Source: a virus. Taken from it: a stretch of 64,000 nucleotides of DNA. How positions within the stretch are numbered: the first letter of the stretch is position 1; each line of letters opens with the position of its first letter. The stretch is taken from IMG/VR virus record IMGVR_UViG_3300036980_001087, positions 1 to 64,000 of that record; one strand, 5' to 3'. Shown piece by piece: positions 18,440-57,523 of this stretch. The translations under genes and the position numbers were made by a program. The notes beneath the pieces are model-generated. The model saw only the letters and a list, made by a program, of their open reading frames with translations, made no database searches and had not been told where the DNA came from.

Positions 18440-18904
18440 ATGGAAAAAGATAATACCTTAAAAAATACTAATCCTAAAGATGCAATTGGTTGTAACAAAG
18501 TACCATTGCACCTATTTCCAGAAACAGCTACTATCCTTGGTTCTTTGGGCTTATTGGATGGTATGCTTAAGTATGGCCGAGCAAATTGGCGGAGAGCCGG
18601 AATTAGGGCATCAATATATTATGATGCTTGCCGTAGGCATATGAATGCTTGGTTTGAGGGGGAAGACACCGATCCAGACTCAGGCTTACCACATTTAGCT
18701 CACGCTATAGCATGTATAGCTATCATTATTGATGCTAAAGCTGCAGGTAAATTAAATGATGATAGACAAATACCAGGAGGATATCGTAAACTCCTAAATG
18801 AAATGACCAAAGAAGTAGCTAGACTTAAAGAGCTACATAAAGAAAAAGATCCCAAGCATTATACTATAGCAGACAAAGAAGGGGAAAATGACACGAAGAG
18901 TTAA
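18440..18904 (+). CDS. dATP/dGTP diphosphohydrolase-domain protein (DUF5664)
   Basis: NPKDAIG..K.PLHL.P, G.LKYG..NWR, RH...W.EGED.DPDSGL.HLAHA. Confidence 0.88.
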   Translation: MEKDNTLKNTNPKDAIGCNKVPLHLFPETATILGSLGLLDGMLKYGRANWRRAGIRASIYYDACRRHMNAWFEGEDTDPDSGLPHLAHAIACIAIIIDAKAAGKLNDDRQIPGGYRKLLNEMTKEVARLKELHKEKDPKHYTIADKEGENDTKS

Positions 18905-19304
18905 GTCCCATAAAGTATACTTAAATGTAAAAGAAGTCCCGGCTAAGATTAATGAGATCATAGGCTACCTCTCTATGGACTTTGGAAGAAATAAATTACT
19001 TGAGCGGGATGATATTGCTCAAGATTTATATGTAGTCTATTTTGATATGTTAAGAAAGCGACCAGAACTTATTAATGAGCGGCCCGGATATTTCTTTATT
19101 AAATTTAAGTGGTACCTTCTTACAAAGTGGAGAAAGCGAGTAAAGGATATTAATAAAGAGTGGCAATATAAATTACAGCGATTTCGTGATGAAGGTATTC
19201 CAGACGACTTCCAGGAACATGCACCTTACGATCCTAAATTAAAGGGGGATGCCCCTAAGAAGAAGAAACGATTAACTAAAAAAAGAAAAGTATATGGATT
19301 TTAA
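18888..19304 (+). CDS. Sigma70 region-2-like protein (putative half of a split sigma factor)
   Basis: ERDDIAQDLYV and GYFFIKFKWYLLTKWRKR align with the ECF sigma 2.2 and 2.4 consensus. Confidence 0.55.
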   Translation: MTRRVKSHKVYLNVKEVPAKINEIIGYLSMDFGRNKLLERDDIAQDLYVVYFDMLRKRPELINERPGYFFIKFKWYLLTKWRKRVKDINKEWQYKLQRFRDEGIPDDFQEHAPYDPKLKGDAPKKKKRLTKKRKVYGF

Positions 19305-19357
19305 CATTATGTGGGAGATGTATTTAGCTAATTTATCTGAACAATGGGAGTTTTCAT

Positions 19358-19633
19358 ATGCATAATGAGGAGATAGGAAATCGGGCAGCTTATACTTCTA
19401 TGTTAGAGCAGGTAAGGGATGAGTTAGGAGAGGGACTCTATGAAATTGCAGAAATGCTTAGCCATGGATTAACTAAACGTAAAGTAGCAAAGCTTTTAAA
19501 TGTCCCTTATCCTGAACTTAAGAAGAAAGTATTGCTCTTAAAGAAATTTATTGCACAGGAATATTATACTGGAGGAAAAGATGGTGGAAAAAAAGGCCGT
19601 AAGACCTTAAAAAAGAAAAATGTACGATTATAA
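19358..19633 (+). CDS. Sigma70 region-4-like HTH protein (putative second half)
   Basis: LYEIAEMLSHGLTKRKVAKLLNVP; own GGGAG SD. Confidence 0.55.
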   Translation: MHNEEIGNRAAYTSMLEQVRDELGEGLYEIAEMLSHGLTKRKVAKLLNVPYPELKKKVLLLKKFIAQEYYTGGKDGGKKGRKTLKKKNVRL

Positions 19634-20162
19634 AGGCTATAGAAAGAAGCATCAGTTAGCACGTAATGCCTATAGTAAAAACTATAGAGAGGAGCATTTG
19701 GCTTATTTTACTAATTATAGAAAGGCATATAAAATTAAATTAAATAAGTATTATAAAAAATATGCTAAATTACACAAAGAAGAAATCTGTAAAAGGAAGG
19801 TGCTCTATAGACAAAGAAATAAACTACAATTAGCAATTTATAAAAAACAATATATGTCTAAATTTGAACATAAACTCAAAAATAGAATTTATTCTACTAA
19901 TAGAAGAGCACAAATTAAAGGCCTAACCACGATACTTATTTCTCAAGTTTATGCAGCAAATAAAAAGAAGTTTGGAGTACTTACTTGTTACCTTTGTTTA
20001 AAGCCAATACCTAAAGAAAAAGACACCCTTGAACACAAAATTCCCCTTAGTAGGGGTGGCACTAATAACAAAAGAAATTTAGCAGTAGCTTGTAATACTT
20101 GTAATTGTAAAAAGGGAACTAAAACAAATATAGAATATTTAAAATTAAGGAGTTTAAAATGA
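19620..20162 (+). CDS. HNH endonuclease
   Basis: CYLC...EHKIPLSRGGTN...NL..ACNTCN..K; basic Tyr-rich N-terminal repeats. Confidence 0.9.
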   Translation: MYDYKGYRKKHQLARNAYSKNYREEHLAYFTNYRKAYKIKLNKYYKKYAKLHKEEICKRKVLYRQRNKLQLAIYKKQYMSKFEHKLKNRIYSTNRRAQIKGLTTILISQVYAANKKKFGVLTCYLCLKPIPKEKDTLEHKIPLSRGGTNNKRNLAVACNTCNCKKGTKTNIEYLKLRSLK

Positions 20163-20754: not shown

Positions 20755-22488
20755 ATGGGAATAGGTAGCACTTGGGAAAATTTCTTTGATAGGCAATCTA
20801 AAAATAATGTCTCTACGGCTAAATTTATATATAAGCCGGTAGCTCCAGAGATATTCTTTAGAGATTGGATGGGGCAACCATTATTCCCAGAGCAATTAAA
20901 TCCTATCAATGCAATGTTTACTCCAGATCTTGAGGACTTAAGCCCAGCAACCAATGAGCTTTTATTAATGTGGGGAGAAGGCTCTGGAAAAGACTTCCTG
21001 TGTGAACGTATTCTAATCTATGTTGCCTATTGGCTTTTATGTCTTAAGAGCCCCCAAAAATATTTAGGTAGAGCAGAAGGTACTCCAATCGACCTAGTTA
21101 ATACTTCTGTTAATGAAGAGCATGCGTCAAATGTATTTTTTGAGCAATTCTGCCAGGCTATTAAGCTGGTTATAAATCCAGATACTGGAAAGAACTGGTT
21201 TGAAGAACAGGGAATGGACATTAGAACTGGGCAGGATATCTTAACAACTAAAGTAAAATTTCCTAAGAACATCTCTGCCTATTCTTGTAACTCCGTTAAA
21301 TATACGGCAGAAGGAAAGAACGTTTTAATAGGAATCCTCGACGAAATAGCTGAATTTAAATATGATAAAGCTAAGTCTCTTTATACTAACTTAAAAGCTA
21401 CTGCGACCTCACGTTTTCCTGGTAAACACAAGATTATTCTTATCTCCTATTTAAGAGACGAGTTTGATTTTATGAATAGCCATTGGAATGAAGTCGAGGC
21501 CATGCCTACAAGTTTAAGAGATAAAGTCTATATGTCAAAGAAATGTACTTGGGAAGTTAATCAGACAGTCACTAAACTAGATTACGCAGATGCATATGAG
21601 AAGGATCCCGAAGATTCCGCAAGACGTTATGAGAACATTATGCCCAGTAAGAAGGGGGCTAAATTTATCAAAGACGGAATGCGCATTACAAATGCTGTGT
21701 ATGATTTCGAGGGCTCCCCTATCATCTCAGAAACACCTTATATTAGTACAAATTTAAAGGATGAGGTCTTTCAAGTATGGTTTAAACCTTATTGTATTAA
21801 AGAAATATATAGATTAGAGCAGGAGTTTGCCTTAACTCCAACAGCAGATTTACGATTAAAGATAGATGGCTTAAAAGAGATGCATAGTAATGGGGGGTAT
21901 TATATCCACATTGACTTGTCAAAGGGCGCCTATGACTATGCTGGGCTATGCTTGTTACATACTTATCAAAAAACTGAGTCCCAAATAGGGTATCATGTAG
22001 ATTTAATAGTCCAATTACAGCCTGATGGGAATGAAATCAATTTTGAACAGATTAGAGAGTTTATTTTTAAATTACAGGCCCAAGGTTTCCCGATTGCTAA
22101 GGTATCTTTAGACGGCTGGAACAGTGTTGATTTTATGCAACTTTTAGATAAACGCGGAATCACTGTAGAATTGGTTTCTGTTGATCGAACTATGCAACCC
22201 TACAACACACTTAAAGATGTCCTCTACCAAGAAGTGCTGGAATATTACTATAACCCTATACTACTTAGAGAGTTAAATGAATTACAATTAATCAATGGTA
22301 AGGTGGACCATCCTAAAGAAAGTCCTGAAAGATTGAAAGAAGAAGGTAAGCGGCTTGGATCTAAGGACCTCGCTGATGCTTTAGCTGGTGCTACTTTCTG
22401 TGCTGTTTCAGCAGGCGGCAGCGGTAATGGTTGTGTGGTAGAATTGGGCTCAAATGAGCCAGATGATTTATTAGACAAGTTCTTCTAA
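20755..22488 (+). CDS. terL: Terminase large subunit
   Basis: Walker A GEGSGKD, Walker B ILDE, IS coupling motif, nuclease HIDLS...LDGW...KDLADA. Confidence 0.9.
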   Translation: MGIGSTWENFFDRQSKNNVSTAKFIYKPVAPEIFFRDWMGQPLFPEQLNPINAMFTPDLEDLSPATNELLLMWGEGSGKDFLCERILIYVAYWLLCLKSPQKYLGRAEGTPIDLVNTSVNEEHASNVFFEQFCQAIKLVINPDTGKNWFEEQGMDIRTGQDILTTKVKFPKNISAYSCNSVKYTAEGKNVLIGILDEIAEFKYDKAKSLYTNLKATATSRFPGKHKIILISYLRDEFDFMNSHWNEVEAMPTSLRDKVYMSKKCTWEVNQTVTKLDYADAYEKDPEDSARRYENIMPSKKGAKFIKDGMRITNAVYDFEGSPIISETPYISTNLKDEVFQVWFKPYCIKEIYRLEQEFALTPTADLRLKIDGLKEMHSNGGYYIHIDLSKGAYDYAGLCLLHTYQKTESQIGYHVDLIVQLQPDGNEINFEQIREFIFKLQAQGFPIAKVSLDGWNSVDFMQLLDKRGITVELVSVDRTMQPYNTLKDVLYQEVLEYYYNPILLRELNELQLINGKVDHPKESPERLKEEGKRLGSKDLADALAGATFCAVSAGGSGNGCVVELGSNEPDDLLDKFF

Positions 22489-22506: not shown

Positions 22507-22515
22507 GTTTTCAAT
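22507..22515 (+). promoter_or_regulatory. GTTTTCAAT motif upstream of portal (putative late promoter)
   Basis: One of seven copies, all oriented toward and just upstream of virion-module genes. Confidence 0.7.
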
Positions 22516-22549: not shown

Positions 22550-23875
22550 ATGTGGTATAATGTATTTGGATTATTCCAAAAAAAGACAGAAGCTCCGCTT
22601 AATCCCGTTGAGGCCCCAGCTGTATCTTCCGGTGCTGAATTTGTAGATCCTGAAGAAAGAAATTTATCTGCTGATCAATTATCTTCCCTCTATATAAGCA
22701 ATTCTTGGGTAAGAAAATATGTAGATATTCTTGCTAATGGGTGTGCAAAATACAAATTGCAGGCAGTTCCTGCTCCTGGAGTTAATGCTGGTGCTGCAAA
22801 GGCCCATTGCCAAGAGGTTAATACCCTCTTAGCGTATGCTAATGATGTGGAGACCTTTAGTGATGTACGAGTTAAATACCTTAAAGACCTTTTGCTTTTT
22901 GGTAATGGTGCACTTGAAGTACAACCCAAAAATGGTACCTCTATTAAATTCCTCTATGCTGCTCCGGGGTATCTTTTAAGGGCTAAATTTGATCTTAATG
23001 GTAACTTAGCCAAATCAAATTGTTATGCTTTTGTTGATCCTCAAACTGGTGAAGAGGGCACGATTACCTATGGCAAGGAAGATATTGTTCATTTTAAATT
23101 AGACCAGTTAAGTGATCGTTTCTATGGCTCCTCCCCTATAGCCTCAGCATATAAAGAGTTTAATGCTGATTCTAAGGCTATTAAAGAAATGGAAAGAGGG
23201 GATTTTGGTATTAGCGCTCAGATTATAGCCTTTCCTAAACAAACTAAAAGTTTTATTTCTACCGTTATGTCTAGTATCCAAGCAGTTATTACTGGCAAGG
23301 GTGGAAATAAAGTAGTCAGCGTTAATACAGAAGACATTAAAAGGATTGCCTTATCGGATAAAACCTATAAAGATGAATTTGAATTCCAGAAATGGTTAGT
23401 CCAGAGACACAATGTCTTTGGTATTCCTCCCTTTAAACTTGGGTTTGTGGAGTCCACTGGATCTATGTCCGCTAGGGAACAGAGGGAGGAATTTCAGTCA
23501 TTGATTTCTACGTTAGTTACCTATGAATGTGAGAAGTTAACCCTAATCCTCTGCCGTACTCGCTTAAAATATGAAGATGTAATTATTACTGCTCCGGAAC
23601 TTGTTACCCGTCTTGATTATGAAAAGGCGCGTGTTCTTGATAGGCTGGTAATGTCTGGGATCATTACTCCCAATGAGGCTAGAGAGAAATACCTTGGTCT
23701 TGATAGGGCTAATGATAAATATGCGGATCAGTTATATGTTAAATCAATGATGGAAGCAAATGAAGTAGATCCTGAAACGGTGGATTTAAATAAAAAGAAA
23801 GCTCAACTTATAGAGAAATTTCTTGGTGATGCAAAAAAAGCGGAAACCGAAGAAGAACAATCCGAGGGGGCCTAA
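22550..23875 (+). CDS. Portal protein (HK97-like)
   Basis: LLFGNG, IVHFK...FYGSSP, FGIPP, GIITPNEAR..LGL. Confidence 0.92.
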   Translation: MWYNVFGLFQKKTEAPLNPVEAPAVSSGAEFVDPEERNLSADQLSSLYISNSWVRKYVDILANGCAKYKLQAVPAPGVNAGAAKAHCQEVNTLLAYANDVETFSDVRVKYLKDLLLFGNGALEVQPKNGTSIKFLYAAPGYLLRAKFDLNGNLAKSNCYAFVDPQTGEEGTITYGKEDIVHFKLDQLSDRFYGSSPIASAYKEFNADSKAIKEMERGDFGISAQIIAFPKQTKSFISTVMSSIQAVITGKGGNKVVSVNTEDIKRIALSDKTYKDEFEFQKWLVQRHNVFGIPPFKLGFVESTGSMSAREQREEFQSLISTLVTYECEKLTLILCRTRLKYEDVIITAPELVTRLDYEKARVLDRLVMSGIITPNEAREKYLGLDRANDKYADQLYVKSMMEANEVDPETVDLNKKKAQLIEKFLGDAKKAETEEEQSEGA

Positions 23876-57514: not shown

Positions 57515-57523
57515 ATTGAAAAC
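57515..57523 (-). promoter_or_regulatory. GTTTTCAAT motif at the head of the minus-strand virion operon
   Basis: TAGTTTTCAATTATA, identical over 15 nt to the portal copy. Confidence 0.7.

Follow-up and report, generated by a model that had tools for sequence, protein, structure and literature searches.

A candidate two-subunit sigma factor encoded by adjacent genes before the packaging genes of an uncultured phage

We analyzed two adjacent open reading frames (ORFs), ORF1 and ORF2, at positions 18888 to 19633 of a stretch of viral DNA of 64,000 nucleotides (nt), hereafter the window. The window is the first 64 kb of the 96,942-bp IMG/VR virus record IMGVR_UViG_3300036980_001087, which is rated complete by CheckV. 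ORF1 and ORF2 probably encode the two subunits of a minimal, group-4-like phage sigma factor, with sigma domain 2 (sigma2) and sigma region 4 (sigma4) supplied as separate polypeptides. This had been proposed in an original prediction made from the nucleotide sequence, and it is still the best reading in view of the region-4 fold of ORF2, a fold match of moderate strength for ORF1, and a genuine two-gene state. Both genes recur side by side in diverged relatives, mostly followed by the same neighbor, and their products would bind RNA polymerase and cooperate at phage promoters. The coordinates, motifs, and stop codons predicted for the two genes were all correct. The elements of the locus are listed below.

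18888..19304, plus strand: ORF1, stand-alone sigma domain-2-like protein of 138 amino acids (aa), assigned by AlphaFold (AF2) model, VIA-align, ESM Atlas, and weak profile matches
19294..19365, plus strand: third-frame ORF of 23 codons that is probably no gene, without counterpart in contig L001 or other relatives
19305..19357, plus strand: intergenic spacer of 53 nt, holding a Shine-Dalgarno-like GGGAG (19346-19350) and a TAG (19325-19327)
19358..19633, plus strand: ORF2, predicted stand-alone sigma region-4 (4.1 + 4.2) helix-turn-helix (HTH) protein of 91 aa, assigned by AF2 model, Foldseek, VIA-align, hhalign, and Atlas

Fold assignment of ORF2 and ORF1

The AlphaFold model of ORF2 (predicted local distance difference test, pLDDT, 70.9) consists of four helices and a Gly/Lys-rich basic tail. 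In a Foldseek search, the best match was region 4 of E. coli sigmaE on −35 DNA, followed by region 4 of AlgU, SigL, and SigC, with probabilities up to 0.99 and weak E-values. VIA-align was run against 48,161 PDB representatives. Sigma region 4 made up nearly all of the top 20 matches to ORF2 (Z 9.6-7.5, 56-70 residues aligned), the alignments covered region 4.1 and the HTH, and LuxR-type domains appeared only further down the list. Both searches thus recovered the four-helix fold of regions 4.1-4.2 with its HTH.

The ESM Atlas gave the same picture. The nearest clusters hold stand-alone proteins of 68-89 aa, 77-100% of whose members carry Sigma70_r4 or Sigma70_r4_2 (PF04545 or PF08281), and the nearest are sigma4-only proteins, with PF04545 in 99%. 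A profile of 17 ORF2 proteins from syntenic loci aligned in register with RpoE residues ~137-183 when compared by hhalign with 79 RpoE orthologues (E 0.0035, probability 9%). The region-4-like HTH of the original prediction was therefore recovered as a sigma region-4 fold by Foldseek, VIA-align, and the Atlas, and ORF2 is, judged from its model, a stand-alone sigma region-4 domain.

The hhalign register places ELKKKVLLLKK of ORF2 opposite TVRSRIFRARE of RpoE in the recognition helix, with Lys in place of Arg at several positions. Distant ORF2 relatives carry Arg in this helix (e.g. SRFKVRRRL). It had been argued that the helix lacks the Arg residues that read the −35 element, which is literally true in this clade. 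Because Lys is aligned there and Arg is present in distant relatives, the absence of Arg is no proof of lost DNA reading, and the argument drawn from it is weak.

ORF1, whose sequence carries ERDDIAQDLYV... and GYFFIKFKWYLLTKWRKR, had been likened to sigma regions 2.2-2.4. Its AF2 model (overall pLDDT 78.5) has an ordered helical core at residues ~14-101 (helices 19-33, 40-57, 59-63, and 66-101) and a disordered basic C-terminal tail of roughly 37 residues ending in KKRKVYGF; basic tails are thus present on both proteins, as predicted. About 14 of the top 50 PDB representatives matched by VIA-align were sigma domain 2 (Z 6.5-5.4), and a repeat search agreed. The best of these were Bartonella RpoE and the M. 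tuberculosis sigma chain 9m98_F, each at Z 6.5; the others included SigH, SigB, pro-sigmaK, sigma70, SigA, ShbA, CnrH, BldN, SigE, an entry of the AR9 non-virion polymerase, and T4 gp55 (7d7d_F, Z 5.5, 89 residues aligned). Foldseek searches of ORF1 against PDB and BFVD returned only matches with E > 0.07, among them M. tuberculosis SigH and a Bartonella extracytoplasmic function (ECF) sigma factor.

In the Atlas structure search, ORF1 matched a cluster with 88% Sigma70_r2 (PF04542) at a template modeling (TM) score of 0.76 over 94 residues, and residues ~10-97 aligned to a number of viral clusters (210-226 aa) with Sigma70_r4. The top feature match (score 0.97) was a viral cluster with 53% PF04542. 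Among sequence profiles, phrog_354 'sigma-K factor' was weakly matched in its N-terminal part (positions 5-58 of 220) by 8 of 36 ORF1 relatives. PF25684 (mycobacteriophage Gp53) was matched by seven of the 36 below its 27-bit threshold (best E 0.0018) and was not matched by the window protein; PF04542 was matched by a single relative (E 0.022) and not by the window protein. Taken together, ORF1 is quite likely a sigma domain-2 protein, by homology or by analogy. Its most conserved positions are D42, Q45, L47, and Y51, then F70, F73, K74, and W75/L77, located on the second helix and the long last helix; all but W75/L77 are invariant or nearly so. If the fold assignment is right, these residues would correspond to regions 2.2 and 2.3-2.4.

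Conservation of the two separate genes

We searched for relatives of both proteins to see how the two domains are distributed over polypeptides. A word-indexed search found 18 ORF1 homologues of 115-153 aa. An exhaustive profile search of 1.84 billion representatives yielded 35 cluster representatives, all of 71-186 aa, and a search restricted to longer proteins found no longer, fused ORF1 homologues. Close ORF2 homologues have 84-92 aa. About 30 contigs carry the pair; they come from uncultured phages, and several stem from sediment metagenomes. In all 28 related loci with downstream DNA (16 closer and 12 distant), an ORF1-type gene is directly followed by an ORF2-type HTH gene. The split thus persists in related contigs, as the original prediction would have it, and regions 2 and 4 are carried by two separate, co-inherited polypeptides in every one of these loci; the sole fused form is a protein designated P0025.

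In IMG/VR contig L001, ORF1 is 65% identical, the two genes are separated by 8 nt, and they are directly followed by the gene for the small terminase subunit (terS) and an insert-bearing gene for the large subunit (terL), with no HNH gene. Across the 16 closer loci, from metagenomes or IMG/VR, the small HTH gene always follows the ORF1 homologue, in relative frame 0, +1, or +2. The junctions range from a gap of 8-13 nt through an overlap of 8 or 11 nt to overlaps of 62-101 nt, the last if the first ATG of the ORF2 counterpart is used. The 53-nt spacer of the window is accordingly not conserved. In the distant branch (12 IMG/VR loci, ORF1 identity ~25-30%), the order is an ORF1-like gene, an HTH gene of 115-130 aa, and a terS-like gene. 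The two-gene state is genuine and old, and the strict adjacency of the genes over about 30 diverged loci is the chief argument that they form one unit.

In one sub-branch (L002, L008, L010, L011, and L017-L019), the two genes share up to 62-101 nt at the 3' end of ORF1, with ORF2 in the +1 frame. The two reading frames look conserved there, with QSxxGYL in ORF1 and LDIxLxLxSL in ORF2; the true start of ORF2 is uncertain in these loci. In L017, the pair is followed by a gene for a RecA-like ATPase (L017:3466-4500) and not by terS, so the pair is not strictly tied to packaging genes.

We considered whether a single sigma protein is made by programmed frameshifting, or whether the split is a sequencing or assembly artefact. 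In the window, the ORF1 stop codon lies at 19302-19304 and the ORF2 frame is closed by the TAG at 19325-19327, as predicted. The 23-codon ORF, through which two successive +1 shifts had been envisaged, does exist and bridges the two frames, and one fused protein of 186 aa is present in the databases. The double shift itself is rejected, since this ORF is absent from relatives and the junctions vary in length and frame. In L004 the two genes share one frame and are nonetheless separated by two stop codons. ORF2 has its own start signals, with GGGAG ending 7 nt before the ATG, in agreement with the Shine-Dalgarno sequence proposed for it. Positions 18800-19700 were reproduced exactly in an independent Logan assembly of the run that is the probable source. 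Assembled contigs of ~90% identity, taken from three other sediment metagenomes, also span the junction; they differ there by substitutions alone and are free of gaps, and so of the indels that had been named as a possible objection. Because the junctions and frames vary, the bridging ORF is unconserved, and the other assemblies are gap-free, we exclude an artefact or a double frameshift with near certainty.

P0025, the fused 186-aa protein, joins an ORF1-type N-terminus, in which the KKYK..F tail motif is kept, to an ORF2-type C-terminus that matches the ORF2 family by hhalign (91.6% probability, E 8e-7). The order of its domains, sigma2 then sigma4, is that of single-chain ECF sigma factors. 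As support for one functional unit, P0025 is suggestive only. A predictor of direct ORF1-ORF2 contact returned a score of 0.00 with no verdict; since two sigma domains need not touch on the polymerase, this outcome is uninformative and says nothing about binding either way. In many ORF1 homologues, the C-terminus is a conserved basic stretch followed by K(K/R)YGF-COOH, and the junction of P0025 keeps KKYKMSNF. Possible roles of this terminal motif are to mimic a linker, to contact DNA, or to act as a docking peptide.

No ORF1 relative was found among 185,579 species genomes, which leaves the family without known prophage copies or a clue to the host. Comparison of DNA and tblastn with the phage GenBank collection gave no match.

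Candidate late promoter element and alternative explanations

The sequence GTTTTCAAT is a candidate core of the late promoters of this phage. Its seven exact copies in the 96.9-kb genome are as follows.

22507..22515, plus strand: first copy of GTTTTCAAT, candidate late promoter core upstream of portal (exact 9-mer match)
27991, 40145, 42777, 43308, 47719, and 57515, minus strand: other copies of GTTTTCAAT (exact 9-mer match)

Each copy has the same orientation as a virion or packaging gene downstream of it. They are found upstream of portal, at the start of the minus-strand operon, upstream of the protease and capsid genes, and upstream of other genes of the virion region. For six copies, a start codon follows 14-37 nt after the end of the motif, and the copy at 57515 is ~160 nt upstream of its gene. 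In a relative with a 95-kb genome (G001), five orthologous sites keep the exact 9-mer in diverged flanks. The exact count of seven compares with a mean of 1.8 for composition-matched 9-mers, and 32 of 1512 arrangements reach at least seven; sites with one mismatch are not enriched (28 against 32.7 expected). As the count is only modestly unusual, what supports the motif is the placement and orientation of its copies and their conservation in G001. At several sites, a Shine-Dalgarno sequence starts 3-6 nt past the motif, so transcription would have to begin only a few bases away from the 3' boundary of the motif. GG(T/C) and at most one further base stand before four of the seven copies, and no conserved second element is visible ~17 bp upstream. 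This layout would fit a promoter with one −10-type element only, like the late promoters of T4. A scan of 13.5-23 kb for sigma-70 promoters and terminators gave no signal above the shuffled background.

The original prediction had connected a single-element motif and late transcription with the two proteins; we infer that GTTTTCAAT may be their target. A search of the complete 96.9-kb genome for the beta-subunit family PF00562 found no match and had a valid control, so the partner is most likely the host RNA polymerase. PF00940 of T7-like polymerases also had no match in the genome, the control for this family being uninformative. In the mechanism that we propose, the helical core of ORF1 would dock where sigma domain 2 binds the host enzyme, at the beta-prime clamp helices, and read or melt a −10-like element, and its disordered basic tail of ~37 residues may stand in for the sigma2-sigma4 linker. 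ORF2 would sit on the region-4 site at the beta flap, its HTH and basic tail contacting upstream DNA. Together, the two proteins would redirect the host polymerase to the virion and packaging genes of the phage, the best candidate target being the GTTTTCAAT element before the virion and packaging operons.

Outside the window, at 93085..93456 of the genome (L022:1429-1800), lies a gene for another stand-alone protein like sigma region 2, 123 aa long. Its matches to PF04542 (E 0.0016, 15 bits) and to phrog_351 'RNA polymerase sigma factor' (E 0.001) are weak. There is no region-4 gene beside it, and the next gene encodes another protein of 123 aa. This mini-sigma could serve middle genes or be a second partner for ORF2. 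A more far-reaching version, which we hold to be rather improbable, is that the phages represent a widespread unannotated sigma lineage split cleanly at the sigma2-sigma4 linker, in which sigma2 alone reads GTTTTCAAT and a free sigma4 is shared by ORF1 and the 123-aa mini-sigma. Such sharing, if true, would make a combinatorial sigma system that times middle and late transcription.

Established two-polypeptide sigma factors are T4 gp55/gp33, SPO1 gp33/gp34, and B. subtilis SigO-RsoA; natural cases are few. SigO itself keeps part of region 2. In T4, promoter reading falls to the sigma2-like gp55, which recognizes one −10-type element, and the small protein gp33 takes the beta-flap site; gp33 is not known to be an HTH protein or to bind DNA. 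The structural search with ORF1 had gp55 among its matches (Z 5.5), and the candidate promoter is likewise a single short element. Unlike gp33, ORF2 has a predicted full region-4 HTH, and, unlike in T4, the two genes are adjacent and no dependence on a sliding clamp is evident.

In a 2026 preprint, SigO and RsoA are described as two small proteins from adjacent genes that supply regions 2 and 4 and work on the host RNA polymerase (10.64898/2026.10.01.756105, citing MacLellan et al. 2008). The same preprint adds Sig7-Sig8 of Tn916, a further two-subunit sigma factor that drives the main promoter of the mobile element (10.64898/2026.10.01.756105). The arrangement proposed here is similar in that two small proteins from adjacent genes would provide regions 2 and 4 to the host RNA polymerase. 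It differs from both systems in that no sequence similarity was detected, the NCBIfam and Pfam searches being empty for ORF1, and in that the cut appears clean, after a whole domain 2 with a linker-like tail and before a whole region 4. The order here is sigma2 then sigma4, in a lytic-type sediment phage. For SPO1, that preprint states that gp33 and gp34 are both needed to direct the host polymerase to late promoters (10.64898/2026.10.01.756105). The likeness lies in the use of two phage polypeptides, and no similarity was found in the phage collection.

According to a report of October 2026, the protein gp53 of mycobacteriophage D29 binds core polymerase 1:1, and purified gp53 displaces SigA by means of its sigma domain-2-like part; the gp53-gp52 module occurs in fused, overlapping, and separated forms (10.64898/2026.10.05.756390). 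The N-terminal half of its family PF25684 weakly matches ORF1 relatives, and the Atlas structure search gave a TM score of 0.63. Unlike ORF2, gp52 (PF17468) is neither an HTH nor a sigma4 protein, so the second subunit differs, and the hosts and phage lineages are unrelated. With ECF (group 4) sigma factors such as E. coli RpoE, the pair shares a predicted content of sigma2, sigma4, and nothing else; it differs in being two polypeptides, in that ORF1 has no profile similarity to RpoE domain 2, and in that no anti-sigma gene is evident. No sequence tie to the known two-polypeptide sigma factors was detectable beyond the sub-threshold PF25684 matches, and the pair is probably a new family of an already known type of two-subunit sigma factor.

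If this is true, it adds a split-sigma family that is unannotated in Pfam, NCBIfam, and PHROGs, paired with a candidate promoter conserved in a relative. The cut between the two domains that a minimal sigma factor needs would provide a natural test of assembly without a covalent linker and possible parts for split-sigma logic gates, and the assignment would name two recurrent 'hypothetical' genes beside terS. No concept is overturned, and the interest is moderate pending joint polymerase binding and promoter specificity.

Several observations weigh against a two-subunit sigma factor. The sigma-domain searches suggested with the original prediction gave structural matches, but neither window protein had a direct match in Pfam, NCBIfam, or PHROGs. 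The two top VIA-align matches of ORF1 were unrelated helical domains (Z 7.9 and 7.1), and its sigma Z scores (best 6.5), being within reach of unrelated helical bundles, are not decisive alone. In profile-profile comparisons by hhalign, the ORF1 family aligned neither with RpoE and 79 RpoE orthologues nor with the 123-aa mini-sigma of the phage itself, and hmmsearch with two ORF1 profiles (A1 and A3) against PDB sequences found nothing meaningful. No sequence or profile similarity to region 2 was therefore established for ORF1: its claimed sigma-2 likeness is supported at moderate strength for the fold (VIA-align, Atlas, phrog_354) and fails for profile similarity to RpoE. P0025 is a singleton on a 977-bp contig, has no relatives that we found in IMG/VR, and could be an assembly error. 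No copy of GTTTTCAAT precedes terS or terL, nor the sigma genes or the HNH gene, and all of these seem to be part of the preceding operon. With another sigma2-only protein encoded in the genome, the ORF1-ORF2 pairing is also not the sole possibility. Finally, the strongest sequence matches of the ORF2 family were to the HTH half of 'antitermination protein Q-like' families and not to sigma models: phrog_79 was matched by 6 of 17 members (best E 3.8e-6) and PF06530 by 5 of 17 (best E 1.5e-4). Sigma-factor and late-activator families came next. For Sigma-70 region 4 of Pfam, three to four of the 17 gave matches below the gathering threshold (best E 0.003), and hmmsearch of ORF2 profiles against PDB sequences returned generic HTH proteins only.

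These Q-like matches bear on the possibility that the two proteins act independently, ORF2 as a sigma4-, LuxR-, or Q-like HTH activator or antiterminator of late genes and ORF1 as a separate polymerase-binding protein that does no more than displace or block the host sigma factor (shut-off), with no promoter specificity. We consider this unlikely. RinA, ArpU, and Q, which are comparable regulators, likewise lie just upstream of terS, and single matches to the 'late transcriptional activator' phrog_532 and, weakly, to RinA were obtained; D29 gp53, a weak relative of ORF1, has so far been shown only to displace SigA (10.64898/2026.10.05.756390). Yet proteins of the ORF2 family match the Q-like profile solely in its C-terminal HTH half (positions 68-139 of 156) and not over its full length, the window ORF2 has no match to it, and we read the matches as membership in a sigma4-like HTH superfamily used by phage late regulators. 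The structural ranking of sigma region 4 above LuxR-type domains, the strict adjacency over about 30 loci together with the fused P0025, and seven promoter-like sites dispersed over both strands, which suit a sigma factor better than a single-site antiterminator, argue for one sigma unit. That the pair is a DNA-packaging accessory instead, e.g. a module that recognizes the pac or cos site with the terS-like protein and is no transcription factor, is very improbable. The order ORF1, ORF2, terS-like gene is kept in most loci, the ORF2 family weakly matches the small-terminase HTH families phrog_141, phrog_7067, and PF06056, and the G20C small terminase matches ORF2 at Z 6.0; the sigma region-4 matches are far stronger than these, the sigma2-like fold of ORF1 has no known packaging role, late activators too typically adjoin terS, and the RecA-like gene of L017 occupies the place of terS after ORF2.

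Genome setting

The genome probably stems from a sediment metagenome and has a G+C content of ~35%. A plus-strand block from 1 to 26.5 kb holds genes of replication and nucleotide metabolism (DNA polymerase, UvsX/RecA-like protein, SbcCD, and exonuclease), and the ORF1-ORF2 pair lies at the end of this module, immediately before the packaging genes. Its predicted position ahead of HNH, terS, and terL was confirmed for HNH by PF14279 and for terL by phrog_9, and for the terS-like gene by position and synteny. The neighboring genes are listed below.

18440..18904, plus strand: dATP/dGTP diphosphohydrolase-like gene with a DUF5664-type N-terminal domain (PF18909 E 2e-24; phrog_2252 E 2e-64)
19620..20162, plus strand: HNH endonuclease (PF14279 E 1e-11, PF01844 E 4.5e-9), absent from the relative L001
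20159..20746, plus strand: terS-like gene, by position and synteny, with a homologue after the ORF2 counterpart in most related loci
20755..22488, plus strand: terminase large subunit (terL), 577 aa (phrog_9 E 7e-7)
22550..23875, plus strand: portal (phrog_12 E 1e-23)

The start of the HNH gene overlaps the end of ORF2 by 14 nt, placing it in the same operon. Pfam and PHROG family searches gave no significant match for the terS-like gene. The start of ORF1 overlaps the 3' end of the diphosphohydrolase-like gene (18440..18904) by 17 nt; this gene appears to be translationally coupled to ORF1, a hint at manipulation of the deoxynucleoside triphosphate pool or at modified DNA. The terL orthologues of two relatives encode 738 aa (L001:5250-7466) and 953 aa (L002:5316-8177), against 577 aa in the window, and their large internal insertions look like inteins or homing-endonuclease inserts. 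The terL of the window has no such insert, and a free-standing HNH gene is found upstream of terS instead.

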